A stretch of 64,000 nucleotides of DNA from Desulfuromonadales bacterium (GTDB lineage Bacteria; Desulfobacterota; Desulfuromonadia; Desulfuromonadales; SZUA-540): contig JAWSUS010000003.1 in NCBI GenBank assembly GCA_033549025.1, positions 1-64,000 of the forward strand, read 5' to 3'. Below are positions 1 to 15,104 of the stretch, piece after piece (the first letter of the stretch is position 1; each line of letters starts with the position of its first letter). Below the pieces are notes generated by a model, which had not been told where the DNA came from, ran no database searches, and saw nothing but the letters and a program-made list of their open reading frames with translations. The position numbers and the translations under genes are program-made.

Positions 1-69
1 GGTATGCGTTCCAAGTGACACCTCCTATGAGCCTCTTAGGCTAACAGATTGGTGTCCACTTTTTCCAGC

Positions 70-237
70 CTACCTCACGCGCGAGTTCTCATAGATCCAG
101 TCCCGGGCGTCGCTGGCTTCTGCTGCCTTGATGACCCTTTTTAGGCTGTCCTGGTGCTCCAGGGCCGCTTCCCGGTTCTCCAGGGCAAGGTTTCTGCCGA
201 TCTCGAAGCCTCTCTTGTAGTTTTCCTTCTGTTCCAT
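70..237 (-). CDS. Small hypothetical protein (55 aa), paralogue of 473..688
   Basis: Hand-translated as MEQKENYKRGFEIGRNLALENREAALEHQDSLKRVIKAAEASDARDWIYENSRVR*. GGGAGG RBS upstream. Below the ORF-track length cut-off. Confidence 0.65.
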   Translation of the reverse strand: MEQKENYKRGFEIGRNLALENREAALEHQDSLKRVIKAAEASDARDWIYENSRVR

Positions 238-472: not shown

Positions 473-688
473 CTAGCCGGCAGAATTCAAAACCGAGTCG
501 ATCCCCTCCAGGCACCCTTCCCTTTCCCAGTAGTCGTAGTCCTGCGGGCCGCCGTCTTCCTCCCTTGCGGCCTTCGCCCTCAATAGCGTGTCCTGCCACT
601 GCCGGGCCTTTTCAGGGTTGCCGGTCGCCAGCATTTCCCCGATTCGTCTTCCACAAGTGATTGCCGTTTCTTTTTCCGTCTGTTCCAT
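473..688 (-). CDS. Small hypothetical protein (71 aa)
   Basis: GAAAGGA RBS, downstream terminator, and similarity to 70..237. Confidence 0.65.
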   Translation of the reverse strand: MEQTEKETAITCGRRIGEMLATGNPEKARQWQDTLLRAKAAREEDGGPQDYDYWEREGCLEGIDSVLNSAG

Positions 689-740: not shown

Positions 741-861
741 TGCTGCCAAACTGCTGCCAAACTGCTGCCAAACTGCTGCCAAACTGCTGCCAAACTGCTG
801 CCAAACTGCTGCCAAACTGCTGCCAATTTGCTGCCAATTTGCTGCCAATTTGCTGCCAATC
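741..861. repeat. 11-bp tandem array, 11 copies of TGCTGCCAA(AC/TT/TC)
   Basis: 7x TGCTGCCAAAC, 3x TGCTGCCAATT, 1x TGCTGCCAATC, immediately downstream of the DotA/TraY stop codon. Confidence 0.97.
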
Positions 862-866
862 TGCTA

Positions 867-3035
867 TCAACTGGATGTCGAAAGTTCGCGGTCTGTCTTG
901 CTGACCTTCGCCTCGTCCTCGCCTGCCCGGCCCCGGGCTTTTCGATCCGCTCCGGCGCCGGGTTCCCCGCCTTCGCTGCCGCCCGACATTGCTTTTTTGG
1001 CTGCTGCACCAGCGCCGCCGCTCATCGGTTTTGTTGCCGCAACGGCAATACCGCGAAGCCGTCCTTCGTCCTGCACCTCGCCTAGATTTTGTTCAAGTTG
1101 ACCGATCCAGCGGATCACTTTTTCCGGAAGATATGTGACCAACCCGAAGATTTTATGGGCAAAAACAACGAAAATTGCACAGAGAATGACGCTTTGAGCA
1201 ATCCAGGTCAGAACTCCAGTCACCCGGCCCGCCTGGACGCTGTTATAGTAAACAAGGAAGCTTTCCCCGATAAAATTTCCGACGACTGCAAAAATGACCA
1301 TAGCAGAGAACAACCCGGCCACCATCAGGGGAGGTCGCGCCAGCACCCCAAACAGCAGCAAATAGCCTTGTCTGCCGTGCTGCCCGGCCATACCCTCCCC
1401 TTCCGGCAGCATGTGTGCGACGGCCCAAAGAGGGGCGGCAAAGAGGGTTTCAACCACCAAAATCAGCCAGCTGATAACGCTGCCGATCCAGAGAACGAAG
1501 GGCAAAAGAGGCAAGTAGAAAGCACAGAACAGGCCGACACCCAGGAGAGTGACAGCGACGGCCCCGACGAGCTGAACAGCGCGGTCAACAACGACTTGCA
1601 AGCCAGATGTTGCGGCATTAGCCCCGCCCAGGGTTATGAGATCCACGACAGGGTTAGAAGCTGCCGCGTCGCCTGCGGCGGTCAGTGCCTGGAGACCGAT
1701 TGCCGCAACCCAGGCGGTTTGCATCCCGCCAATCAGCATATGGCCCCAGTCTGCCAGCGCGGTAATCGGGTCATTTTCTGAGAGCTTCCGCGCCACAAAG
1801 TAGACAGGCCCTTGGCCGTCCAGGCCGATAGCGTCTGTAATAAACTTCGTTGCCCTGACTATCACGGAATCCTCATCAACGCCCTGTTGTGCGGCATTGT
1901 ACCGGGCCTGCCGGGCTTCGCGGGCTTTCGCTTCTGCTGACCACCAAAGTGCATCAAACGCCGGGTCGTTGCTGGAGAAAGAAGCAAGCCGGGCTTGACT
2001 TGCGGGCCTCATCTGAGGCATTCCGCTGGACAAGTCGTGGCTGTAGCCTGAGAACCGGCTGAGAGTCCAGTAATAGGACCCCAGCATCAACCAGCCGTCT
2101 TTCTGGGCCTGCTCGATAAAGCTGTCTAGGCCCTCTTGAAACCGGGGGTTGTTTTGGTTGATGATTTCGCCCAAAACCGGGGTGATCCTCGCCGTGTATT
2201 TGTCCACGGCATTTAAAATAGTGTCCGGGTCCAGTTCACCGGGGGCCGGGACACCATTGTCCTCAAGTTCCTTTTCACTCATGACCGACGCGGCCAGGGT
2301 ATGCGCGGCAGGCTGCAAGGCGCTCAACATGTCAAACATTCCCTGCGCCCGGGCTTGGCAAACGCGGTCCTGGTGGGAGGTGCAAGGAATGATGATTGCG
2401 CCCATTTCTGCGAGTTTTACCGAAGAATCCGCCGGAGGTTCGAAGAAAAGAACGTACTCCGGCCGCTCTGGGGTCGGGTTCGATACCCGGACGATCTGGC
2501 TGAATTCCTGCTGCAGCTTGTAATTCATGTAGCGCTGGGCGGCCATGATCTGGAGCGCCTGCCCGGCTATTTCTTCGGCGTTCTGGCGCAGGGATGGCGG
2601 CGCGGAAACTGTGACCTGGCCGCCGTTGGCCTGGAGGTATGAATAGCCATTCCCTGCCAGGTAGTTGGCAAAAGAAACGGAGTGCCCGACGCAAGCCAAA
2701 ACCACCACCATGAGCATGGAAAGCCCTTTGGCGGAGGGGATCAGCAGGGCGACGCCTACCGCCCCGCGCACGGGGGTCCAGAGGGTTGAGAGCTTGCCCA
2801 AGGGCTTTCCCTCGTGCGCCGTGCCGATGATTCCAATGCTTATCGAGTAGCACAGGACAAGCGTTCCGATGGCTAGGGCAACAACTGACATTGCAGACAA
2901 AAGGGAAATAATCAGGGTTGCCGCTTCGCCGGCAGCGCCGCCGCTTGTGATCTGTCCGAGATTTTCCCAATTCTCGCCAAAAAGGGCTTTTAGCATTGAG
3001 CCGCTGACGTCGCCGGCGGGGATATCTTCAAACAT
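867..3035 (-). CDS. traY: DotA/TraY family conjugative inner-membrane protein (type IVB / MPF-I)
   Basis: N-terminal D-x-S-x-x-x-L-x-x-LFG and GTAHEGKPLGK..LWTPVR motifs; DGWLMLGSYYW; C-terminal YLPLLPFVLW, APLWAVAH.PEGEG, RPPLMVAG and LPEKVIRWIG motifs typical of DotA/TraY. Confidence 0.9.
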   Translation of the reverse strand: MFEDIPAGDVSGSMLKALFGENWENLGQITSGGAAGEAATLIISLLSAMSVVALAIGTLVLCYSISIGIIGTAHEGKPLGKLSTLWTPVRGAVGVALLIPSAKGLSMLMVVVLACVGHSVSFANYLAGNGYSYLQANGGQVTVSAPPSLRQNAEEIAGQALQIMAAQRYMNYKLQQEFSQIVRVSNPTPERPEYVLFFEPPADSSVKLAEMGAIIIPCTSHQDRVCQARAQGMFDMLSALQPAAHTLAASVMSEKELEDNGVPAPGELDPDTILNAVDKYTARITPVLGEIINQNNPRFQEGLDSFIEQAQKDGWLMLGSYYWTLSRFSGYSHDLSSGMPQMRPASQARLASFSSNDPAFDALWWSAEAKAREARQARYNAAQQGVDEDSVIVRATKFITDAIGLDGQGPVYFVARKLSENDPITALADWGHMLIGGMQTAWVAAIGLQALTAAGDAAASNPVVDLITLGGANAATSGLQVVVDRAVQLVGAVAVTLLGVGLFCAFYLPLLPFVLWIGSVISWLILVVETLFAAPLWAVAHMLPEGEGMAGQHGRQGYLLLFGVLARPPLMVAGLFSAMVIFAVVGNFIGESFLVYYNSVQAGRVTGVLTWIAQSVILCAIFVVFAHKIFGLVTYLPEKVIRWIGQLEQNLGEVQDEGRLRGIAVAATKPMSGGAGAAAKKAMSGGSEGGEPGAGADRKARGRAGEDEAKVSKTDRELSTSS

Positions 3036-3037
3036 TT

Positions 3038-3520
3038 TTAGGCCCTCCCCAGAATCCAGTCTTTGAAGAAGAAAAACCGTTCACATTCAAGAACCTGCAC
3101 ACGCCAGTAACGACAGACAACCACGACAATTGACATAAACAGAATCAGGCCCGCGCTGATGATCGGGAATAGAGCGCCGGTTTTGTATCCGAAATACAGG
3201 CCATAGAATGACCCCAGGCCGAAAATGAAATAGATAAAGATCTGAACTTTCATAACCTGGATGACCTTCGGCAACTGCTCCCGCGTGATCCCCCAGTGCT
3301 CCAGGACTTCATCAAAATTGTTCAGGTCTGGCGCTCCGGGGGCGTTCGGGTCGCGGTTAGCATGGAGGCCTTTCAGATGTTGCTTGATCCGGCTTGTCGA
3401 ATTCCTGATGATCTGGTGAGCGTAGCGCCGCTCGTAGGGGTTGACGCCTGCCTTGACGGCCTCGACGTGGCCCCGGGCGAACCATCGAAAGGGTTTTGTG
3501 GTTTTGCTGAAAAATCCCAT
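3038..3520 (-). CDS. IcmV/TraX-like membrane protein
   Basis: 160 aa; FDEVLEHWGIT..L segment, two hydrophobic helices, C-terminal RYWR..L....F.F..W. Directly upstream of dotA/traY, as icmV and traX are. Confidence 0.65.
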   Translation of the reverse strand: MGFFSKTTKPFRWFARGHVEAVKAGVNPYERRYAHQIIRNSTSRIKQHLKGLHANRDPNAPGAPDLNNFDEVLEHWGITREQLPKVIQVMKVQIFIYFIFGLGSFYGLYFGYKTGALFPIISAGLILFMSIVVVVCRYWRVQVLECERFFFFKDWILGRA

Positions 3521-3638
3521 GGTTAGCGCCCTCCGATGTTCTGCAGCAGGCTGAGAAAACCGGCCCCGAAAAAGAAACCCCAGATCCAGCCGCTTGCTTT
3601 GATTTTGAATTCATCGCTAAAAAGTTTTCTTTTCATTG

Positions 3639-3980
3639 TTATTGGTCTCCTTTCAGGGCTGCACAGCATTGACCAGCCTGGTTGCAGTCGCTGTGTTTTT
3701 CATTGATTCGAATAACAGCATCGGTACTGCCTATTTTTGCATGATAGTTTTCAAGGTCTGTCAGCCGTCTGTATTTGCGTTCGATCCTGTCAAGCTGCTT
3801 TCTGAGTACTGTTTCTTTTGTTGAATCGGCTTCAAGTACTGCATCAGCGATTGCGCCTTGAGTTTCGCACATAGCAAGCCCGGTGTTGATCAGTTTGAAT
3901 TGCAGTCTCCGAAACTTATTGTTTGATACGATTACTTGAATGTCACTATCTGGCATTGAATTAAAGCAGGTTCTAAGCAT
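3639..3980 (-). CDS. Hypothetical protein (AT-rich coding sequence)
   Basis: 113-aa ORF with AAGGAG RBS, in the same run as 3986..5353. Confidence 0.55.
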   Translation of the reverse strand: MLRTCFNSMPDSDIQVIVSNNKFRRLQFKLINTGLAMCETQGAIADAVLEADSTKETVLRKQLDRIERKYRRLTDLENYHAKIGSTDAVIRINEKHSDCNQAGQCCAALKGDQ

Positions 3981-3985
3981 GATTG

Positions 3986-4288
3986 TTATTCTCCTTTCTT
4001 GCTGTATTTGTCGACTTGTTTTTGCAATATTTGACGGGCGGCTTCGCTTTTGCTGATCCCGGCCTCCCGGGCCAGACTTTCGAGTTTTTTAAACTGCTTT
4101 TCTGTCAGCTTTATGTCCATTTTCTTGATGATTTCCCCGCGCTCTTTCTTTTTCGAGATCTGCGGTCGGCCCCGGCCCAGCCCTTCGCGCAAAAAATCTG
4201 CGATGTGCCGGCTCTCCCGGGCCGATAGTTCGGCCAAGGAGAGGGAAAGGGCTGCATCCAGGGGGAGGCAGAGGACTTTTTTATTCAC
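3986..4288 (-). CDS. Tandem ribbon-helix-helix (CopG-like) DNA-binding protein; start uncertain (4288 or 4321)
   Basis: C-terminal MDIKLTEKQFKKLESLAREAGISKSEAARQIL fits the RHH pattern; the N-terminal half is a second RHH-like unit. Confidence 0.7.
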   Translation of the reverse strand: MNKKVLCLPLDAALSLSLAELSARESRHIADFLREGLGRGRPQISKKKERGEIIKKMDIKLTEKQFKKLESLAREAGISKSEAARQILQKQVDKYSKKGE

Positions 4289-4880
4289 TTTCTTCACTTT
4301 CTGCAGTCCTTTGTGCATCAAAAATTTTTCTCATATTTTTCAGTTCTTCCGCCCAACCCTCCAGCGTCATCTTCCCCTCATGCGTCCGACGCTTGGTCCG
4401 GTTGTAAATATTTCTGAAAGACTTTAAGTGCTCCTTGAATTCCTCCACCTCTTTTTCAAGCTCAGCAACTCGATTCAACGCCGCGTTGAAAGCCTGCTGC
4501 AGCCCATCCTCGGTCGGCGGAAGCAGATCGTCCTTGCCTGGGATATCCTCCTTGTTGACCTCCATCACGCCCAGTTCGCGGTCTGTTACCTGCATGACCT
4601 TGTAATACCTGACTTCCTTGTCGTTTCCCCTCTTGCTGTAGGCGACGATTTTGGTTCCCATCTCCAGGTAATCCCCTGCCTTGACAGCATCCTTGACCAA
4701 CAAAACGCCACCGCCGTCTCTTTTTTCCAGGAAAGTTCTGTCTAGCCCGCCCTGGATACTCTTATCTTTCCAGACCAATGCGCCCCAGCGTTTGCGGGAC
4801 TGCACGCTGTATCTCGTGTCCAGGAGGTCCAAGGGGTTGTCGATAGTGCCGTCCTCGATTTTCCAGACCATGTATTCCAT
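4281..4880 (-). CDS. Hypothetical protein with C-terminal coiled coil
   Basis: 199-aa ORF with strong AAGGAG RBS. Confidence 0.75.
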   Translation of the reverse strand: MEYMVWKIEDGTIDNPLDLLDTRYSVQSRKRWGALVWKDKSIQGGLDRTFLEKRDGGGVLLVKDAVKAGDYLEMGTKIVAYSKRGNDKEVRYYKVMQVTDRELGVMEVNKEDIPGKDDLLPPTEDGLQQAFNAALNRVAELEKEVEEFKEHLKSFRNIYNRTKRRTHEGKMTLEGWAEELKNMRKIFDAQRTAESEESE

Positions 4881-4939
4881 TTTTCAGTTCTCCTTTTTTG
4901 TTCTGGAGGGGCGAACTCTGCCGCCCCTCCGGTGCTTTT

Positions 4940-5353
4940 TTAAGCGGCTTTTTTTATGCCGCTGATCTGTTGATAGGGCTTATCCCATTGCCCGACGCTG
5001 ATATTGAAATAAAAAGCAGTGTGGAAGTAGTCGGTCATGCTGTCCGACTTGTCGAACCATTCTTGACCCCCTACCGCCTTGCCTGGGGCCGTCCTGATGA
5101 TTTCGACAATCTGATCAAAAAGCTCGGCGTGCTCGCCCAAGTTTTCCGTCCAGTGGTGGTTAATCTGTACGTGCTGATGTTCCTTGTCGTAGTCCGACTT
5201 AAACAAATCACTAAAATCGACAGGGGAGGCCATGATTGAGACATTCACAGAACTATGGTGGTGACGCTGAACAGAAAACTTAAAGTCCTTTCCGAACTTT
5301 TCTTTAAGTGCTTTTCTGATTTCTTTGACTTCCTCTGTGCTGATGTATGCCAT
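4940..5353 (-). CDS. LPD29-like (large polyvalent protein-associated domain) protein
   Basis: EIRKALKEKF..KFSV....SSVNVS and SDSMTDYFHTAFY motifs recalled for LPD29-family proteins of conjugative elements and phages. Confidence 0.7.
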   Translation of the reverse strand: MAYISTEEVKEIRKALKEKFGKDFKFSVQRHHHSSVNVSIMASPVDFSDLFKSDYDKEHQHVQINHHWTENLGEHAELFDQIVEIIRTAPGKAVGGQEWFDKSDSMTDYFHTAFYFNISVGQWDKPYQQISGIKKAA

Positions 5354-5391
5354 TTTTCAGTTCTCCTTTTTGATCTGTTTAAGTTGTCTAT

Positions 5392-5420
5392 ATATTACCC
5401 CTGCCAAAGGTATTTTTCAA
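5392..5420 (-). promoter_or_regulatory. Sigma70-type promoter for the LPD29 to dotA/traY gene run
   Basis: Minus strand TTGAAA-17 bp-TAATAT, ~40 bp upstream of the LPD29 start. Confidence 0.55.
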
Positions 5421-5695
5421 GTAAAAAAATCGTTTTTCTTCTTTTTTTTCAGGTAGTTACGTGTTTGGTTTTAGGGGGTAAAAACCCAACAAAAATAGCA
5501 AGGGTTTTGCTCGGAAAAGAACCGCCTCCGGCAAACCACCACCCCTTCCCCACCCGGTTTTGACTTTGGTTTTGACTTTAAAGAGCAACAGCGACCGGCC
5601 GGGAATCTTTGCGACAGGCGCGTGAGCGCAGGCCCACCGGCCTGTGTGCAACGCAAAGCGTTGTGCATAGGCCGCGGGACTTCTAGCAGAAACCT

Positions 5696-8203
5696 TCAAT
5701 CAAAATCCGGTTCCCAGTCGCTCGCAAGCTCCAATTCAAGCTCCAGTTCTTTTTCTTCAACTTCAGGCTCTGCCGCTGCCTCTTGTCGGGTTTCCAGTTC
5801 CGGTGCGGCTTCCCGGTAATCCAAGCTTGTTTCTTTTTGCTGGGATTTCGCCATTGCCTTCTCCAGTTTTTCCAGGTTTTCAGCCTCAGCGACGATTGAC
5901 CGATCAACATATAAATGGGCGCTGTCTCTGTGCCTCGACATTTGAACGTAGCTCATTTCACGGTTCGTCATTGAGCCGCCGCCCAAGACAAAGGTTTGAC
6001 CGACGGTCACGCCCTGGGCTTTATGCGTCGTGACTGCATAGCCATGGCTTAAATGGCTGTATTTGTCAGAATCGAATTGCACGCGCTCCCCCGAATCCAG
6101 CTTAACCGTCATTCTCCACCCCTCATCCTTACCCGGGATCATCCTTTCCAAGGTTCCCAGAGTTCCGTTTTTGACACCAACCTGTTTGCTGTTCCTCTCA
6201 AAAAGGATTCGGTCTCCTTCCTGAAATTCCAGTTTTCCCCTGCTTTCCGTCTGGATCTCGGCCCCAGGCCCCAGGCGCTTTTCGCTTTTTAAAGTTTCAC
6301 GGGCAAGGGTGTTGAGCTGCTGAACCTCGACCCTTGTTGAAGCAAGCATTAAAGCCTCGGCAGGTCTTGCTTTGTCCCACGCCTGCCGCCAGTCCTGCAC
6401 CATGATTTTCATGGTTTCGGCGCGGTTTTCTCCTATATGCAGGCATCCCCGCTGGGAATACTCACGCAGGGCCTCGGCGGCTCGGCCTGCTGCAAAATGA
6501 TGGGTTGCTTGCACGGCCCAGGCTTCGCGCTGCCGTCTGATCTCAGTCAGTTCAGCAAAGCCGGTTTTGCTAGAAATCGCTTTAAACGCGCCGCCGGCGT
6601 CCACCGGCTGCAGCTGCTTGTCATCGCCGACCAGGACCAGCTTTGCGCCGGATTGCTGGCAGAGGTCTACAAGCCGGGCGGTTTGCCGGCTGCCAACCAT
6701 GCCCGCCTCATCAACGACAAGGACCGACTTGTTGTGAAGCTTCGTTTCGCCTGCCTCGATCTCTGCAAGCAGGGAGTGGATTGTCTGGCTCTTGATGTTG
6801 CTTCCTTCTTCCAGTCCAGCGGCTGCCTTGCCAGCCAGCGCCGCGCCCCGGACTTCATACCCTGACTTTTCCCAGGCTTCGCGGGCTGCGCCCAAGAGAT
6901 AGCTTTTTCCCGCTCCGGCCATGCCGACCAGGGCGCTGACCTGGTTCGGCTTGGCGATAAATTCCAAGGCCGCTGCCTGCTGGTCTGACAGGGTTCTGGA
7001 AGACCGGGCGGCCTCCAGGGCTGCCGGGGTGACAATGTGTGTTGCCCGGGCGGCCATGCTTTCTGCGTTCTGCACCATGTTCCTTTCGATCTGGAGCATT
7101 TCTGCAGTCGTGAAACGTTCTTGTCCGTCTTGGCCGATGAGCCGCACAAGATCAGGGGATTTGTGCAGATCTTCGACAAGGGATTTTATTTCCCTGTAGT
7201 TCATGACCCCCTGGGCTTCGACGGCGACTTTCCGCACCAAGTCTGCTTTTCTAAAAGTTGACTGGCGTTCCGTGAGCTTTAAAAGGATCTCTTCTTTTGT
7301 TGGGCGGGATGGTGGTTCTGTCGCCTGGGCGGCCTTGACTGCCGCCATGTCAAACCCGAACTCCTTGCCCGTGGCTTTCCATTCCTCAAAAAGCTCGCCC
7401 CTGGGCCGGTATTCTTTCTCTTGCCGGGTGTCCAAAGCAGCCACCTGGGCGGCCTTGGCGCCGCTGAATCCTTTTTCCGCAAGCGCCTTCTCGATGGCCT
7501 CTCGGCGCTTACTGAACTCTTTTTCAAGGTCTTTCGGGCTTCCCACGATCCGGAAGGAATCGCCGTCGCGTTCAACTGAGAAGCCCATTTTTTGCATTTC
7601 AGTGGCCAGCTCTGCCCGATAAATAGCGCCGGCCGCCATTTTGTTTTCGAACATCTCCAGAGGCTCTAAAGTCCCAAAGGTGCCGTCTTGCCTGGCGCAT
7701 AGGTTTGCTACCAGCATGTGGGTGTGAAGTTGGGGGTCCTGGGCGCGGCTTGTGCTGTGCTCATAGCCTGCACAGATCAACCCTGCCGGGCGCTCCGCTT
7801 CGGCTCCGCCCTTGCCCCGCCGGGTGACAGCGCAGCCTTCCAGGTGGTCAAGGGCTGCCCTTACCGCACGATCCTGGGCCGCCTGGATCTTCTGCCGGGT
7901 CTCATGATCGGCTTGACTCCAGACCGTCGAAACCGACTTTGGCGCCGAAAAACAGAAGTCCCAGCCGGGGCGGTGATTTTCGCGGCCGGCGCTCTGGACT
8001 AGAGGCACGACGGCGCCCAGGTGGGGGTCATAGCCATTAAACAGGCGCCGATAGTTATCTGAATCGATCTGGCCTGCCAGGTTTAGTGACTGACAGCCTT
8101 GGCCCAACCACTGCCCCGGCGGTTCGCCGCCGGCCTGGTAGTAGTCTTCACTCGCCAGATCTGCCCAATAATCAATGTCTCTGATGATATCAACTGTCAG
8201 CAT
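5696..8203 (-). CDS. MOBF (TrwC-like) relaxase-helicase
   Basis: N-terminal DYW..DYY tyrosines, [27 protein letters not shown] (HUH), FSKRR; RecD-like helicase motifs [35 protein letters not shown]. Confidence 0.95.
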
Positions 8204-10380
8204 TAGAACTCCTCTTCTTCTTGGTCTTCGTCAATGCCCGGCACGGTGTCGGCTGCCGGCGATTTTGGCCCTGATGGGCCGCTCAAAACCCCGCCACCCA
8301 GCGCGGCTAGCTTGGCAATCATGTCGGTCTCTTCCAGTCCCGGCATCATAATTTCCATGACTTCCCCGGCTGCCTCTTCCTGCGCGTCGGCTTCTTCCTC
8401 CTCCGGCTCTGCTGGGTTTTCTTTGGTTTCCTCTGCCGCGCCTGGGGGGAGAAATTCAGGGTCAACCGGCGCGGTCTGCTGGGGTTCTCGTTCTGGTTCG
8501 GGGTCTGGTTTGGGCTTTGGTTTGGGTGCCGGGGCTGGTTTTGCTTCTGGTGCGGCCTGGCTTTGCTCCTGGGCCTGATTTTGTGCAGGGCTTCCCCCTT
8601 CCCCGCCACCAGCCCGTTTCTTTTCTTCTTGCTCCTGCTGCATCTCCCGGTGAAAATCAATGACCTGCTTGGTCTTCCTGCGCTTCGTCCACGCTGCCGG
8701 CTCATCCTCAGAACGAACTATTTTTGCGTCCACCCAGGGCCAGAGCAATTTATAGACGGTTTGGCCACCAGTCAGCAAAAGCCCTTCGACCGCCTTTTGT
8801 TTTTGGCGGTTTCCGAGAGTTGAGAACTCGTCCGGCCGCACGATATATTCATCTTGCTCCTGCCAGCTGTCTTGTCGGCTGTCGCCTGTTGATCCGCCAA
8901 CCCCGCCGCCGGAGTAGCTGGCAACATATTTCCGGGTCTTCTGCTTTCCGCACAATTTTGCAAGAAATTCGGCGGTCTCGACTGCCAGCGCACGGCCCAA
9001 GAAGTAGGTTCCAATATTTGAGGTCCAGTTCTCGGCGGTGTGCTCTCCGTAAACTTCTCTTATTTGCGAAATATTTTGACTGCCGATTATCATCCTGACC
9101 CCTTTCGACCGGCCGACTTCCAGCATTTTTGTTAATGTTGGGACTTTCCCGACTTGTATAATTTCATCGAAGACAAACCAGATTCTTCTGGTTCGTGATT
9201 CAGTCATTGTGGGGCTTGATACAGTCGCACCTACAACTGACATGATGGCTTGAATATAGCTTTGTTCTAGCTGCTTATATCTTTCATTCCCCTGCAGAAT
9301 GATGATTCTATGCTTTGGGTTTTTGTGTTTTTTGTCGGTCAACAACCATTTTCTGATTGAAATGGCAGGTTTTTTATTCCAGGCAGCGGCTAAATCAGAC
9401 ACGGTTGACATGTAGGAACTCAAAACAATCAAAAATGATTGTGAGGTCTTTGTGATTTCTTCGCTTTCGACCAGTCCTGACGCCTCCGGCGTATATTTGT
9501 GAATGATTGATCTGAGGTGCTTGTAACCCTTGGCGATCTCCCTTAGGACGTCCTGCAGGTCCCATTGATCCCTCTCTTTAATCAAATAGACCAGCACAGC
9601 GGTCAGGATCGCCCTCGCTGCATTCGCCCACATCGGGTCTGAGCTGTCTTTGATGAGCGCCTGGGCGAAATTCCGGGCATCCGCAATATTTTGGAGGTCT
9701 TCCGAGATTTTCCACGCCGCGCACCGCTTGTCCCAGGGGGCGAGAATTACCCCATCAAATCGCTGCGTCCATTCGCCTTTGTTGTCGTATATTAATAGTC
9801 TGTCGCCCCGCGCCGCTGCCGCCCGAGTGATGGGAAAAATAAAGGTGGTTTTGCCCGCGCCGCTGCCCCCGACCGCGAAAATATGTTTCGTTTCTCGGTC
9901 CAGACTGATCGGCACCCCGGGGAAGATTTCAATCCCGGCTTCCCCTTTTCCGATCTCTTTTTTCATCTCTTTTTTGAGTGCTTCGACAGCTGTTTCTTCC
10001 TCCTCCAACTGCCGCCCTGCAAGATGTTCGACAGCGGGCTGGGGGGTTGTGAGCCACCAGCCGATCCAGCCCGCCAGGGTAGCCCCCAGGACGCCGACCG
10101 ATGCGGTGGCCTGGGGGGAATAGCAATAAGGCATGGGGAAGCGGGTATAAATGATCTTGAAGCTCCGGGCAGACCCAAAAAGATCGACCCCGGCCAGCCC
10201 CAGGGCTGATTTAAGGATGGCCACGGGCCGCCAGCCGTTTTGCGCAAAAATTGGCAAGTTGCTGATAGCCCAGGCAGCTGCATAGGCCCCCAGGGCCAGC
10301 CCCAGAGCCGCGAAGGTCAGGGAGCATAGGGTTGTGCCTTGTAGGTCTCTGGGTTGTCTCATTACCTTCTTTTTGTCCAT
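8203..10380 (-). CDS. Type IV coupling protein (TrwB/TraD-like)
   Basis: Two N-terminal TM segments, Walker [16 protein letters not shown], Walker B WFVFDE, GRSKG, QNISQI; long acidic Pro/Glu tail. Confidence 0.93.
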
Positions 10381-10404
10381 GGGGCGGGCCTCCTGCTATC
10401 TTTT

Positions 10405-10761
10405 TTAACGGCTTGTCGGGCGCTGCTGGGCGGGTTGCGTGGGTTGCGCGGGCCGTTTCTTTGCGATCTCCAGAGCGAGCGTGTTGCTTTGGCGGACAAT
10501 TTTGTCTTGGCCTTCGGCGAGCAATTTCATCATCTCTGCCAACACCGTGAGCCTTTCGGTCAACAATGTTTCTATGTTGCCGATTCGGTCAGCGGTTCGG
10601 GTTTCGAGTCCGGCGAGGCGGGAATCGAAATTGATCCCTTCCACGCCCTGTCGCCACCCCTGGCGAAGAGCATCAGCTAGGGTAGATCCAGACTTGTTTG
10701 CTTCCTTCTCCAGCAAATCAAAATCAACTTGGTTAAGTCTGACGGTCACTCTTTTTTCCAT
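10405..10761 (-). CDS. RHH relaxosome accessory protein (TrwA/MobC-like)
   Basis: RVTVRLNQVDFDLLEKEANKSGSTLADALR RHH pattern; first gene of the accessory-T4CP-relaxase operon. Confidence 0.75.
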   Translation of the reverse strand: MEKRVTVRLNQVDFDLLEKEANKSGSTLADALRQGWRQGVEGINFDSRLAGLETRTADRIGNIETLLTERLTVLAEMMKLLAEGQDKIVRQSNTLALEIAKKRPAQPTQPAQQRPTSR

Positions 10762-10781
10762 TTTTCATTCTCCTTTTTAGG

Positions 10782-11039
10782 TTGGCTGCCAACGGCAGCG
10801 TTGGCGGCTATTTGGCTGCCAAACACTATTTATGCCTGGCAGCGTTGGCAGCTATTTGGCTGCCAACGTGGTTTTTTGTTTGGCTGCCATTGGCTGCCAA
10901 CGGCACAGGGCCGTTTTTGCACGGGTTTTCGGTTTTGCGCGGTTTCTTTTGGCAGCCAGCGACTAGCAAGGTTGGCTGCCATTGGCACAGCCCTAATTTG
11001 CTGGGCTGTGCTTGGCCGGGCTGCCCTCCTGGCAGCCAA
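10782..11039. repeat. Cluster of ~8 TTGGC(T/A)GCCA(A) palindromic boxes in the oriT region
   Basis: Copies start at 10782, 10812, 10856, 10880, 10890, 10949, 10972 and 11029, plus a 29-bp direct repeat (10794-10822 / 10838-10866). Confidence 0.9.
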
Positions 11040-11043
11040 ATCA

Positions 11044-11072
11044 CACCCGGCTGGGTGAGTCGGGTGTGTAAG
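11044..11072 (+). other. Predicted MOBF oriT, nic between 11067 and 11068
   Basis: CACCC-GGCT-GGGTG hairpin followed by AGTCGGGTGT/GTAAG, resembling the F (GCGTGGGGTGT/GG) and R388 (GGTGCGTATTGTCT/ATAG) nic sites; lies upstream of the trwA-like gene. Confidence 0.65.
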
Positions 11073-11096
11073 AAAAACTATGTCGCCTTTGGGTGG

Positions 11097-11813
11097 TCAA
11101 TATCCCAGCGCCATCCACCAGGCCGGCCCATGAGTGATGTCAGCTACCATGTTGGCGCCGAATCGATCCACTGAGTACGCCTGCCCGCTCGTCGCGCTGG
11201 TGGAGTTCCGATTTGCTGTGACCTGAATGCTCACACATGCAGTCGGGAAAGGGATAGGGAACGGCTTGTATCGAACAGCATTAGTTGTCACCAATCCCCA
11301 TTGAATAATCAGACCATTGGGCAATCGGGTCCAGCCGGCCGCACCAAGGCTGCCCTCGGCCCCTGGCCAGGATGTCCGGGGAACTCCCCCAAGGGTGATG
11401 GACCCGGCCGTCAGGCTGTTGGCCTGGGCTGAATTCAGCCTGGAAGTGCTGGCAGGATTGACATAATAGGAACTGTCTTGCAGATCCCGCATTTCCCCGG
11501 CCAAAATCGACGCTTGGCGGCTCCATCCTGCAGGATCTAGGTAGTAGGAAGGGTTGTCCCTGTCCTGAAAGTAGGACCCCGAAACGACGCCCCCCTGGAC
11601 CTCCCCGGGAGAGTAGACAGACCCGGCAAGGACCTGGCCGCCGGAATACATGGAGCCGGCCTGCACCTGCCCGGCTGCTGTGATTGAGTAGCCATGCAGG
11701 TTCTGGTGCTGGTTTTGCGCAACCCCAGGAGGGGCATAGCTGGTGGAATCAGCGGCAAAAACGGGGAAAGAAGGTAGCAACAAAAGCAGCAGGAAAATTT
11801 TTTTCATTTTCAT
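11097..11813 (-). CDS. Secreted adhesin-like protein with PilV/fibre-like repeats and a phage tail-fibre (gp53-like) C-terminal domain
   Basis: Signal peptide MKMKKIFLLLLLLPSFPVFA; two D..YY(L/V)(D/N)PA..SR repeats; C-terminal GWTRLPNGLIIQWG..FPIPFPTAC..WMALGY. Confidence 0.75.
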   Translation of the reverse strand: MKMKKIFLLLLLLPSFPVFAADSTSYAPPGVAQNQHQNLHGYSITAAGQVQAGSMYSGGQVLAGSVYSPGEVQGGVVSGSYFQDRDNPSYYLDPAGWSRQASILAGEMRDLQDSSYYVNPASTSRLNSAQANSLTAGSITLGGVPRTSWPGAEGSLGAAGWTRLPNGLIIQWGLVTTNAVRYKPFPIPFPTACVSIQVTANRNSTSATSGQAYSVDRFGANMVADITHGPAWWMALGY

Positions 11814-12013
11814 CACCTGATCTCCTTGCACAGAAATAGGCCATCCGCCAAACCCGTAAAGTAATGAAATTCATGGGTTTTACGGGCTTCAAGGGGTGCT
11901 GACCAGAGGATGTTTCTCAGGGTCTTGTAATCTATGTTCAGCCCCAGATGATTGATGGATTCGAGCCAGTCAAGGACTGGCTCTGTGAGGTTTTGTTGAT
12001 TAGTTTCGGGCAT
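11813..12013 (-). CDS. Small hypothetical protein (66 aa)
   Basis: Abuts the upstream stop codon and has a TGATG overlap with the adhesin start; GGGGAGG RBS. Confidence 0.65.
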   Translation of the reverse strand: MPETNQQNLTEPVLDWLESINHLGLNIDYKTLRNILWSAPLEARKTHEFHYFTGLADGLFLCKEIR

Positions 12014-12502
12014 TTATGCCTCCCCTACACGATGAGATATGGCCGCGCCCGGCGCAGAGGTGAGGTCCATGCCCTTGCGCTGGTAATAGTCGGCCAGGCT
12101 TTGCCCACAAGTCGCCCAGCCGGCGGTCGGCTTCATTCGGTCAACTTCCTTTATTTTTTGAAGGATTTGCGCCCGGGTGGCTTTGCCCGAAAAAAACAGC
12201 CGATGCATGGATTGGAAAACCTTGTAGCTGTCAGGGTCGCCCGGGGTGAATCTCTCCCGCGTCCGCTGGGCCTGCTGGCGATCGGCGCGGGCCGCCCCGG
12301 CCTCCCTCACCATCCGCAGAAAAACGATCGGCGCGGGTTGGGAGGTGAAGGTTCTTTCGAGCGTCTTGAGGGCATCTCTCGCATCCTCGGCTGCCTCTCC
12401 TTCCAGATCCTGGGCCAGCCGCTCCCTGGCAGCGCGGGGGTAGTCCCTAGCAAACATCATTTCGATCGTCTTGACCGCTTCCAGTGCGTGTTCTTTCTTC
12501 AT
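12014..12502 (-). CDS. Hypothetical protein, possible replication partner or helicase loader
   Basis: ATGA overlap with the rep gene; position equivalent to lambda P. Function inferred from position only. Confidence 0.6.
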   Translation of the reverse strand: MKKEHALEAVKTIEMMFARDYPRAARERLAQDLEGEAAEDARDALKTLERTFTSQPAPIVFLRMVREAGAARADRQQAQRTRERFTPGDPDSYKVFQSMHRLFFSGKATRAQILQKIKEVDRMKPTAGWATCGQSLADYYQRKGMDLTSAPGAAISHRVGEA

Positions 12503-13371
12503 CTGATCTCTCCTTTCTCGTACAACTCCATGAAGGTTTCGAACGGCTGGGGGCCTTCCCCGCCTTGCTCCTGCTCCTCTTTTCTTTTCCAGCCAGCCAT
12601 CTGCCCTCTGTCTTCCTCAGACAGCCCGCCTTGGTCGATTATTATTCTGTTTTTCGCCTTCCGTGCCCAACCTGTCGGGCTGAACGGAGGGCCACCAGCA
12701 GACCCGTACAGCAAGCCCAGCCGCAGGTATTCCTTTATTTCTTCATCCTTGCTTGCTCCCCCGCCCGGGGTAGGGAAAGGCTGAGATTGATAGGAATCCA
12801 GACCACCACCACCTGACCGCTCATCTCCCTCCCCTGTCTCTTTTTCACCTCCCTCCTTGGTGGTGGTGGTATTCTGGTTTGTTTCAGTTCTGTGTTGAAT
12901 AAGATCTGTGCTGTATATATGGGGGGGTGAACCGTCGCCGGGTGAACCGTCGCCGGGTGAACCGTCGCCGGGTGAACCGTCGCCGGTTGACCCGCCATCT
13001 CCGGGTAACCCGATCATGGGCTTTTCTTCCTTTTTCTTTTCCTTGCCACGCCGCCTTTCTGCATAAAAATCAACATTCTGCGATTCTCCATAGATTTCCG
13101 ACACCCAGTTCCACCCTCCGTTCTGCAGGCGGATTTGCCGCCTTTTGACATACCCGGCACGCTCCAAATTCTCCATGGCCCTCCCCAGCCGGTCTTTCCC
13201 CCACCCCGTTTCTTTTTTGATCTGGCCGGGCCGGAATTCCCAGCCTGGGGGGCGGCTGATAAGCCGCACGAGAAGGCCCAGCTCATCGAGCTGGAGCCGG
13301 GGGTCGCGAAGAGTTTTGACGGGCAGCAGCTCGAACTGGCCAGTCGGTTTTACTATTTTGTAGATCGACAT
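12499..13371 (-). CDS. Phage-type replication initiator with N-terminal winged HTH
   Basis: True start MSIYKIVK at 13371; LRDPRL...GLLVRLISRPPGWEF....IKKETGWGKD...RAMENLERAGYV pattern; internal iteron-like repeats. Confidence 0.75.
   Translation of the reverse strand: MSIYKIVKPTGQFELLPVKTLRDPRLQLDELGLLVRLISRPPGWEFRPGQIKKETGWGKDRLGRAMENLERAGYVKRRQIRLQNGGWNWVSEIYGESQNVDFYAERRRGKEKKKEEKPMIGLPGDGGSTGDGSPGDGSPGDGSPGDGSPPHIYSTDLIQHRTETNQNTTTTKEGGEKETGEGDERSGGGGLDSYQSQPFPTPGGGASKDEEIKEYLRLGLLYGSAGGPPFSPTGWARKAKNRIIIDQGGLSEEDRGQMAGWKRKEEQEQGGEGPQPFETFMELYEKGEIR
12925..12984. repeat. Four perfect 15-bp tandem repeats GGGTGAACCGTCGCC (putative iterons/ori inside rep)
   Basis: Four exact copies plus degenerate copies to ~13012; flanked by an AT-rich tract at 12871-12920. 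Confidence 0.9.
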
Positions 13372-13375
13372 CGCC

Positions 13376-13687
13376 TTACCCCCTTCTTTCCCTGACTTCC
13401 TGGGCCTTGCTCTTTCTTCCCATTTTCCCTTTCCCTGCGGGGCTGCCTTCTGCCTCACCCCCTTCTTCCCCCTCTGGCTGATTTCTCTGGTCCAGCCACA
13501 GCAGCAGGGAGCGGGTAGGGTAAAGGACGGCCCGCCCGCTCTTGATGTACGCTGGCCCCTGTCCTTGACAACCCATGTTTGCCAGCCTCTTTTGAGACAG
13601 CCAGGGGAAATATTTTTGGATTTGCGCCCTGGGGATGACTGGCGGGAATCGATCTTCCAGGTCCAAAAAACTAAACTCTTTCTCCAT
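13376..13687 (-). CDS. Excisionase/AlpA-like HTH protein
   Basis: LSQKRLANMGCQGQGPAYIKSGRAVLYPTRSLLLWL matches the Xis/HTH_17 pattern; GGAGG RBS. Confidence 0.75.
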   Translation of the reverse strand: MEKEFSFLDLEDRFPPVIPRAQIQKYFPWLSQKRLANMGCQGQGPAYIKSGRAVLYPTRSLLLWLDQRNQPEGEEGGEAEGSPAGKGKMGRKSKAQEVRERRG

Positions 13688-13773
13688 CTGTAAACCTCCT
13701 TTTTTCTGCCTTGTTTAACCCAGGATATCCCCCCGCATCCAGAAAAAAAAGAGAGCAAATTTGAGGGTATTTG

Positions 13774-13801
13774 AATTAATTTGACATATGTCAATTTAAT
13801 T
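13774..13801. promoter_or_regulatory. Palindromic operator / back-to-back -35 hexamers between divergent genes
   Basis: AATTAATTTGACATATGTCAATTTAATT with a perfect TTGACATATGTCAA core at 13781-13794. Confidence 0.65.
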
Positions 13802-13844
13802 GGTAAAAAGAAGCCCTGACATATACAAAAGGGGGGGTTGGGGC

Positions 13845-14906
13845 ATGAGAACAAGGGAAGACAAGACGGGGAATCAAAATCAAGCTCTGCCCGCCAAGGC
13901 GGGCCGACCGAAGGGCAGCACGAGAGAACAAACAGCGTCCAAAAAACTAGATTTTTTGAAAACAAGAACCTGGGTTTGGACATCCTCCGCCCGGCTCTCT
14001 GAAGGAGGCGACCAGCCGACAAGCTACAGATTGAGCCGGGCGGCGAACCAGCGCAGGAAAGACGGCTACGGACCGACCCCCGAAGCCTGGGATCGTTGGA
14101 AGAATAAAGAGAGGGGGGTGACACAGGCCACCGTCGAATCCCTCTGGTCAGAGACCAGCGATGCCTTTTCCGTCGGCCCCTGGGTTGGCCCATGGTCCAT
14201 GCTGGCTGAAGGGACGCCCTGCCTTGGCAGCACATTTAAAGAAGACGTCGCGGCCGGCGCGGGGGGATATGTACCCCTGTGGGAGCAGATCAGAGGAAGT
14301 GCTAACCCCAAAGAAGCTTGGAAGAAAATCCCCAAATCGGCATGGGAAGCCTGGGCGCCGCAGCGACCCCTTGGCTTCGGAAAAATCAGCTTCGGAAAAA
14401 TCAGCCTAGCTTTAAAAAATAGCGAACTCATCCCCGGGAAAGACGAATTCAGATCCAGTGTGACCCTACATAATTTTTTGCAGAAAATCGCCAGAGAGAT
14501 CACCGCGCCGGCCTTGCTGGCCCTCGCGGCAAGCCTGTGTTTAGCGCGACTCGAAGGAAGAGAAAAAATATTGTTTTTCGACCCCCGGTTCCAATTCAAC
14601 ACAACGGAACAGTCCTTTAAATATTCACTATCCTCAAAGCAGCGGCCGCGAGTTCTCAACGCCCTCAAGGAGATAGACATCCAGTTCGACGAAATCGCTT
14701 TGATTTCAGGGGAATTTGGGTTAGAACTACTTGATTGCGGCAGCATGACCCTCGACCAGTACAAAAATCACCTGGGCCTTAAAGAGCTGATTGTCGACGC
14801 CCCTAGAAAAGAAGAAGATTGGCGGGCCATTTTCGAGCCACAAATCCCAGGGGTTACAAGGGGAAAAAATGGGACAATTTTGGGACAACGGGAGGAAGAT
14901 TTTTAA
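13845..14906 (+). CDS. Hypothetical protein, possible element regulator
   Basis: 353-aa ORF divergent from the xis-like gene; basic GRPKG N-terminus; no family recognised. Confidence 0.65.
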   Translation: MRTREDKTGNQNQALPAKAGRPKGSTREQTASKKLDFLKTRTWVWTSSARLSEGGDQPTSYRLSRAANQRRKDGYGPTPEAWDRWKNKERGVTQATVESLWSETSDAFSVGPWVGPWSMLAEGTPCLGSTFKEDVAAGAGGYVPLWEQIRGSANPKEAWKKIPKSAWEAWAPQRPLGFGKISFGKISLALKNSELIPGKDEFRSSVTLHNFLQKIAREITAPALLALAASLCLARLEGREKILFFDPRFQFNTTEQSFKYSLSSKQRPRVLNALKEIDIQFDEIALISGEFGLELLDCGSMTLDQYKNHLGLKELIVDAPRKEEDWRAIFEPQIPGVTRGKNGTILGQREEDF

Positions 14907-14969
14907 AAAATCCAGAAACATAACTATTTGTTTTTATTGATTTTAACGTACTAAAAACCCCGGCTCTCT

Positions 14970-15026
14970 GGTCTCAAAAACCGATGGCTTCTGGCCGTGC
15001 CGGTTCGATTCCGGCCTTCGGCACCA
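14970..15026 (+). other. att site: 3' fragment of tRNA-Leu(CAA), anticodon loop to CCA
   Basis: GGT-CTCAAAA-ACC anticodon arm remnant, long variable arm, GCCGG-TTCGATT-CCGGC T arm, CTTCGGCACCA end. The 5' acceptor strand and D arm are absent upstream. Confidence 0.88.
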
Positions 15027-15104
15027 CAGCAAATCAGGGCCGGGAGTACTTCTCCTGGCCTTTTGCATTTCTGAAATCGATCCCTTCAAAAAGGAGACAC
15101 ACCG

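Follow-up and report, generated by a model that had tools for sequence, protein, structure and literature searches.

Why should a mobile element carry the central subunit of a conjugation channel and almost nothing else of the machine to which that channel belongs? The question is raised by the first 64,000 nucleotides (the window) of contig JAWSUS010000003.1 of a sediment bacterium of the Desulfuromonadales (assembly GCA_033549025.1), where a traX-traY pair of the type IVB, or class I mating-pair formation (MPF-I), family lies in an element of about 18.9 kb, together with a relaxase, a coupling protein and a secreted adhesin. The explanation to which we give somewhat better than even chances is an integrative and mobilisable element (IME) which hitchhikes on an MPF-I helper and refits it with its own TraY, in the manner of the genomic island SGI1. 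All coordinates are positions in the window unless another contig or locus is named, position 1 being the first base of the contig (C3). The host genome (G000) consists of 78 contigs and is 100% complete; other G-numbers denote other genomes, and L-numbers denote loci.

The identity of the pair is well supported. TraY is the only protein of the host genome of its kind, scoring 369.6 bits against TIGR04346 (cut-off 100), and its alignment had a single sequence match in the PDB, the DotA structure 9ngy (E 8.5e-97 by profile). DotA was also the top Foldseek match of the predicted fold (E 4e-10), on a weak AlphaFold model (pLDDT 58.8) which served as a fold check only. Full length, score and DotA-like fold agree in placing the protein in the DotA/TraY family, and a homologue of 97% identity was assigned by its source to a Desulfuromonas species. 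The product of the preceding gene scored weakly for TraX, and its orthologue in a second genome, G189, scored weakly for both TraX and IcmV; a profile of the two matched genes in many full MPF-I loci, best of all the gene preceding traY on a Desulfosarcina plasmid (68 bits), and TraX is homologous to the gene in that position in full MPF-I plasmids. The original prediction of an intact DotA/TraY gene with a TraX/IcmV-like partner is therefore upheld. Between the window and G189, the ratio of nonsynonymous to synonymous divergence (dN/dS) is 0.061 for traY (at dS 0.43), 0.079 for traX, 0.047 for the integrase, 0.10 for the coupling protein and 0.16 for the relaxase. Strong purifying selection acts on traY, which hence is not decaying.

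The rest of an MPF-I machine is missing from the element and from the host. Two sets of queries from Desulfobacterota MPF-I loci (32 and 24), both of which matched the control loci, found only traX and traY in the element and, elsewhere in the host genome, only M23 peptidases and ATPases below the TraJ cut-off. The latter were rejected as TraJ/DotB and taken as pilus or secretion ATPases. These pilus-type cross-matches aside, nothing of the self-transmissible MPF-I set (DotO/TraU, DotB/TraJ, DotG, DotH, DotI, DotC, DotD, DotL/DotM) was detected in element or genome, nor any pilus gene in the element. Family searches of the host for DotG, DotI and DotH were blank; because the DotI and DotH controls matched nowhere, the absence of MPF-I from the host rests on the tblastn searches with control loci and on DotO, with all but 9,464 bases of the genome covered. 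The original prediction had named a complete MPF-I locus in the host as a check, and none was found; another of its checks, for such genes to the left of the window, turned up an integrase and a restriction-modification pair only.

A third gene of MPF-I provenance, a short open reading frame (ORF) of 66 codons, modifies the prediction that TraX and TraY alone come from such systems, which otherwise stands for core and pilus genes. Its homologues lie directly upstream of dotH in the full MPF-I loci of G128 (E 4e-13) and of pDsulf-L2-2 (E 1.5e-7), just before traY in G057 and G180, and in a traY-less sister IME in G215. The protein belongs to no Pfam or PHROG family and had no significant plasmid match as a single query. 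On sequence evidence, then, three genes of the element trace to MPF-I loci: traY, traX and the 66-codon ORF.

The element is very probably an IME. It extends from an intact tRNA-Leu(CAA) on contig C44 to the repeat within the window; both attachment (att) sites are present, as repeats specific to this tRNA gene, and the predicted tRNA-Leu integration is thus confirmed. In the assembly it is interrupted by an insertion sequence (IS) of 1277 bp, which we take to be IS3-like. On C44 the intact tRNA is followed by a tyrosine integrase, a BglII-like endonuclease, an MT-A70 methylase and the IS, the other end of which opens the window; the integrase therefore lies on C44 and not in the window. Among the neighbours of the IS, five upstream and five downstream, a 3-bp duplication matching at this junction is found only for C44-right and C3-left, two other pairs show a match as well, and on each side two ends remain without one; from the shared duplication we infer the C44-IS-C3 join. 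In the closed genome G189 the same element stands uninterrupted at the same tRNA; its repeats lie 18.3 kb apart there, and its restriction-modification pair is a different one. The site is empty in two congeners, G190 and G188. The IME status is thus supported by an integrase, att repeats, empty sites in relatives, and a relaxase and origin of transfer (oriT) in the absence of a complete mating-pair system. The features are collected in Table 1.

Table 1. Features of the element within the window
Feature	Position	Strand	Evidence or remark
IS end	1..77		1277-bp IS, collapsed repeat (contig C65), inserted within the element
71-aa ORF, no function assigned	473..688	-	96% identical in G189
Tandem 11-mer	741..865	+	repeat, 11.4 copies (15.4 in G189), directly downstream of traY
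DotA/TraY, VirB6-class central channel subunit of type IVB (MPF-I), 722 aa, intact	867..3035	-	TIGR04346
TraX/IcmV-like membrane protein, 160 aa	3038..3520	-	weak NF033887 and NF038219 matches
Four small ORFs: 113 aa, ribbon-helix-helix (RHH)/CopG 111 aa, 199 aa, LPD29-domain 137 aa	3639..5353	-	all kept in G189
MOBF relaxase with C-terminal helicase, 835 aa	5696..8203	-	PF08751 268.8 bits, NF041492 233.5 bits
TrwB/TraD-type coupling protein, 725 aa	8203..10380	-	PF10412 240 bits
Probable RHH relaxosome accessory protein	10405..10761	-	from position
Probable oriT	10762..11090		eight 9-bp boxes (10783-11038), hairpin, then 15-bp nick-like motif (11054-11068)
Sec-exported pilin-less fibre adhesin, predicted homotrimer	11097..11807	-	PF21882
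66-aa protein	11813..12013	-	homologues in two full MPF-I loci and related IMEs
162-aa ORF after rep, no function assigned	12014..12502	-	83% identical in G189
Phage-type replication initiator-like helix-turn-helix protein (rep), about 290 aa	12499..13371	-	PHROG 4707, E 7e-9
Probable excisionase (xis) or DNA-binding protein	13376..13687	-	89% identical in G189, 50% in G180
353-aa divergent ORF, candidate regulator	13845..14906	+	95% identical in G189
attR	14970..15033	+	64-bp exact repeat of the 3' part of tRNA-Leu(CAA); 100% to C44:4182-4245

The mobilisation module is unlike that of MPF-I systems. The relaxase, with its TrwC domain and helicase, is of the MOBF class; the coupling protein was also considered as a DotL/TrbC type, a candidate rejected after two DotL/TrbC queries gave no tblastn match. 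The window shares the 15-bp motif of the oriT region with G189 and G180; the motif has no second copy in the genome, and 8 of the 64 genomic matches of the 9-bp box fall in this region. The layout resembles that of MOBF nick sites. Each of the sister elements (window and G189) has its own repeated box next to a diverged RHH-like gene, the N-terminus of whose product has diverged together with the boxes. Relaxase, coupling protein and oriT-like region therefore agree with the original prediction, but the RHH label found no match in family searches. The same applies to the predicted xis-rep pair: rep, with a ribosome-binding site, a homologue in G180 and most likely a start at 13371, matches PHROG initiators, but family searches gave no match for xis, which we take to be an excisionase from its position and general resemblance. 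Family searches were likewise blank for the 353-codon ORF. All ten starts examined have a purine-rich leader, and every reading frame that the original prediction had named was recovered intact.

The adhesin opens with a signal-peptide-like sequence; its mature N-terminus is conserved, its stalk repeats vary in number and its head is variable, being Gp53-like in the window copy. The signal-peptide-like N-terminus is found in all five aligned members of the family. Three copies were predicted to fold as a trimer with a score of 0.82 (best control 0.00), partner pLDDT values of at least 85 and agreement between runs in 90% of contacts; in a calibration which holds only roughly for the adhesin, 20 of 30 solved pairs and 1 of 23 single chains attained the score mark, and the adhesin may have attained it through its resemblance to solved fibres. 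The alignment matches three of 233 genomes of the order, namely the two carriers of the element and G128, the only order genome with DotO, where the match is a PilV with prepilin and Shufflon_N domains adjoining pilM; its stalk is matched by the adhesin repeats at E 5e-13. The adhesin was considered as a PilV and rejected, since it lacks the prepilin signal and the Shufflon_N domain which the G128 protein has, and does not match the PilV of pDsulf-L2-2. As judged from its sequence, it is PilV-like in stalk and layout and cannot enter a pilus as a pilin, so that of the predicted adhesin the secreted fibre is retained but not the PilV. Identity between the sister copies is only 49%, distributed as a mosaic, and their heads differ. 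None of the other lone-traY loci examined showed the adhesin; a metagenome scan returned one contig of 1.3 kb, a third copy with the same neighbours. Atlas searches gave leads only, all below 0.9. The PilV of G128 (L140:3-2303) exceeds 767 residues, with about 14 stalk repeats, and is unusually long for its family.

Lone traY genes recur both within the order and outside it. TraY over the cut-off is present in 6 of the 233 order genomes: the window host, G189, G057, G180, G074 and G128. Only G128 has a full system. In G057 the lone gene accompanies a MOBQ relaxase on an island bounded by a 61-bp repeat at tRNA-Leu(TAA), and in G180 the island runs xis, rep, coupling protein, MOBF relaxase and traY, with a 19-bp repeat. 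The gene of G074 is a fragment behind an IS, and broken pieces also occur in G078, G080 and at a second site in G189. A scan of the genome contigs with a single TraY protein found no relative; a tighter alignment query did. Among 80 traY loci from GTDB, 43 have at least three other MPF-I matches, 13 have one or two and 24 have none, and in nine of these 24 a relaxase and/or a TrwB-type protein stands next to traY; the nine include G180 and near-copies and make up some six lineages, and many of the other 15 loci are short contigs. Seven plasmids of 19-39 kb were selected for small size and read whole; all seven have traY, accompanied by nothing more of MPF-I than traX or an ExcA-like gene, and their relaxases range from a clear MOBP type in three plasmids through a weak match in one to none recognised in the remaining three. 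Lone traY is paired repeatedly with MOBF, MOBQ and MOBP relaxases. On a tree of 52 TraY proteins (L125 and L090, having no long ORF, were left out), the lone or full label, assigned by the analyst, needs at least seven changes, five of them forced by starred branches; lone traY thus arose, or full systems were lost, several times. The lone gene of G057 is sister to the full-system gene of G128, and the window TraY has no close full-system relative.

Several of these loci carry features of their own. The second, truncated traY of G189 (L022:5549-10802) is 65% identical to the C-terminal part of the window TraY and has AbiJ-domain defence genes nearby. A 43-kb Klebsiella plasmid (CP110760.1, L151:4774-9028) combines traY with an annotated type IV major pilin, had no other MPF-I match in the 16 kb read, and may be a hitchhiker equipped with a pilin of its own. 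Small linear and circular enterobacterial plasmids (L194:6823-12792, NZ_CP039280.1, and L195) have a lone traY and no recognised relaxase, the Salmonella plasmid of the pair also carrying flagellin and its repressor. Two lone-traY plasmids (L038:4743-5882 and L042:29518-30636) encode an M23 peptidase as well, with a relative in a full MPF-I locus of Xanthomonas. Divergent lone traY genes of rumen Desulfovibrio bins (L128:9977-12208 and L133:4098-6224) lie among housekeeping-like genes, with no relaxase seen nearby.

Elements with a comparable strategy are known from other classes. SGI1 is likewise integrative and, as is proposed here, helper-dependent, with a VirB6-class subunit that is the donor-side exclusion target and an adhesion-type protein (PMC5704250). 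Its TraN, TraG and TraH belong to the IncA/C MPF-F system, whereas the present element has an MPF-I TraY and TraX, a tRNA-Leu site and a PilV-like fibre instead of TraN, and none of those three families was seen among its ORFs scanned; the SGI1 family is also without a canonical relaxase or coupling protein, whereas the element has a MOBF relaxase and a TrwB-type protein. GIsul2 and an IncP island are small IMEs with a VirB6 homologue and a proposed reshaping of the helper pore, the IncP island with its own relaxase (PMC5704250), but they carry TrbJ-TrbK-TrbL of MPF-T, including VirB5 and an exclusion gene; the element had no match to these families (VirB5, Eex and VirB6 of MPF-T), has an MPF-I VirB6 analogue only, and encodes its own coupling protein. 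The traX-traY-excA cassette of IncI1, IncL and IncM shares gene order and family (PMC4416936), but the element is without excA, traW and other tra or trb genes and is not self-transmissible. Replacing the coupling protein of the helper would be a trait shared with IMEs and mobilisable plasmids of MobC types which have their own VirD4 (PMC5704250), from which the element differs in being MOBF and in adding a channel subunit. The adhesin, in turn, may be compared with PilV (Shufflon_N, PF04917), the tip adhesin of type IVb thin pili: its stalk repeats match one of three PilVs tested, that of G128, and the variable C-terminal head may be a further parallel, while its Sec-type signal is a difference. 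By analogy, the element is probably SGI1-like in its working, but it is a member of neither the SGI1 nor the GIsul2 family. A literature search, made mostly without subscription papers or supplements, found no MPF-I hitchhiker with a lone traY; the original claim of a new satellite class was nevertheless too strong, as IMEs with a VirB6-class subunit have a published precedent in MPF-F and a proposed one in MPF-T (PMC5704250).

Published work suggests what a spare TraY could do. Donor TraY is the partner of recipient ExcA, and from one exclusion group to another traX, traY and excA diverge in concert (PMC4416936); the partners in exclusion are homologues of VirB6 (PMC12282955), and DotA forms a central pentamer with IcmX which needs DotG (bioRxiv 10.1101/2025.06.23.660953; PMC12857230). 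In SGI1, replacement of TraG disables exclusion, as is also proposed for GIsul2 and the IncP island, and traNGH are dispensable, which compares with the accessory traY here (PMC5704250). On this model, an MPF-I plasmid or integrative and conjugative element (ICE) would enter the host, whereupon the element would excise and probably replicate; its MOBF relaxase would nick its own oriT, and its own coupling protein would deliver the DNA to the machine of the helper. There, TraX and TraY would replace, or mix with, the central channel subunit of the helper, such that ExcA in recipients already carrying the helper would no longer block transfer and/or the pore would favour the island. The exported PilV-like trimer might add a head binding the recipient, a weaker proposition. 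We consider an MPF-I helper likely, and lean slightly, by analogy, towards a subunit swap serving escape from exclusion; a role for the adhesin in mating is conceivable, at rather less than even chances. More tentatively, there may be a widespread, repeatedly evolved and hitherto undescribed group of MPF-I hitchhikers, comprising islands and small plasmids with MOBF, MOBQ or MOBP relaxases, which capture traY to rebuild the helper channel; this member would go furthest, also replacing coupling protein and tip through a pilin-less, PilV-derived trimer whose head is exchanged between copies.

A number of observations weigh against this explanation. No helper was found in any of the four lone-traY hosts searched, where DotO gave no match although it did in G128, and across the order DotO occurs in 1 of 233 genomes as against 6 of 233 for TraY over the cut-off. 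The nearest full-system TraY is only about 32% identical, and compatibility with any known helper is not evident. Only 20 substitutions separate the sister traY genes, without the fast change that an exclusion arms race might produce. Neither a TraW/IcmX partner nor ExcA was found in the element, unlike the VirB5-Eex-VirB6 set of GIsul2. The adhesin matches one of three PilVs tested, and phage-type fibres, too, have its stalk repeat and head. Contigs of four runs matched to the G189 copy contained no circle joint; one empty-site joint, in run X3, came from a diverged organism. The TraY tree is a quick one with long branches. Related IMEs with coupling protein and MOBF relaxase lack traY in G215, G159 and G212, G215 carrying VirB4; in this wider family of IMEs traY is an accessory gene. 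The SGI1-like strategy put forward in the original prediction accordingly remains the best explanation, but no helper was found in the host, and swap and exclusion escape are argued by analogy.

Within the same helper class, TraY and TraX might instead be an adaptor through which the foreign coupling protein, of TrwB type, supplies an MPF-I pore, or might jam transfer by the helper. Lone traY does adjoin a TrwB-type coupling protein in seven of the nine GTDB loci and in pGEV872.3, MPF-I systems use DotL/TrbC with DotM instead of the TrwB type, and traY is highly conserved between the sisters; we regard this as unlikely, though worth keeping in view, given that no coupling protein was detected with the lone traY of G057 and several small plasmids, and that the role tested for the SGI1 analogue is escape from exclusion (PMC5704250). 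It is distinctly improbable that MPF-T or MPF-F helpers, the usual ones for MOBF, serve the relaxase and coupling protein, with traX, traY and adhesin as accessories outside the island's own transfer. The rarity of MPF-I in the order and the traY-less sister IMEs, one of them in a genome with VirB4, speak for such helpers, but three MPF-I-derived genes and a PilV-like stalk lie within one 19-kb element, lone traY pairs repeatedly with three relaxase classes, and neither VirB4 over the cut-off nor TraC-F was found in the host either.

The hosts have no detected conjugative ATPase, and lone traY outnumbers full systems in the order, observations that would also suit a minimal helper-free device made of a TraY pentamer, the coupling protein and host envelope parts (e.g. 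a type IVa pilus secretin), contact being made by the adhesin. Hosts without a helper are nonetheless what is expected for IMEs, the element encodes no outer-membrane or ATPase part, and the Legionella DotA-IcmX channel needs DotG for assembly (bioRxiv 10.1101/2025.06.23.660953), so that we hold such a device to be quite improbable. A decayed remnant of an MPF-I ICE, suggested by the IS inside the window copy and by broken traY pieces elsewhere in the order, is largely refuted and very improbable: reading frames and ribosome-binding sites are intact, dN/dS lies at 0.05-0.16 for five core genes, the MOBF/TrwB module is unlike that of MPF-I, and G189 shares the gene order, with both att sites. 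The search for the same synteny in other Desulfuromonadales thereby yielded an intact sister instead of a one-off remnant. Most remote of all is a phage satellite supplying its own tail fibre; integrase and initiator are of phage type and the gp53-like head matches tail-fibre families, but all five aligned adhesins begin with a signal-peptide-like sequence, relaxase, oriT and coupling module are complete, and no packaging or capsid genes were seen.

Some details of the element and its surroundings stand apart from these alternatives. The tandem 11-mer next to traY resembles the oriT box of this copy, while G189 has the same tandem unit and a different oriT box; the array is possibly iteron-like or regulatory. 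The adjacent 71-codon ORF was considered as an ExcA-like membrane protein and rejected for want of a hydrophobic segment. The LPD29 gene (4940-5353) is identical in DNA to the G189 copy, its neighbours having dS of 0.2-0.6, and this identity suggests recent exchange between the copies. Upstream of the intact tRNA-Leu, on its other side, a separate island (L032:434-3538 on C44 of G000) carries a second integrase, a nucleotidyltransferase pair and a pair which we take to be ParD/ParE-like.

If the hitchhiker explanation is correct, the refitting of pores by mobilisable elements, tested for MPF-F and proposed for MPF-T, would extend to a third large class of Gram-negative conjugation systems. It would offer a candidate explanation for the lone DotA/TraY genes of many small plasmids typed as non-mobilisable, some of which carry resistance genes. 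Naturally interchangeable TraY variants may provide a handle on the assembly of the type IVB central channel and on its recognition by ExcA, and the pilin-less adhesin would represent a new way for a satellite to choose its recipients.

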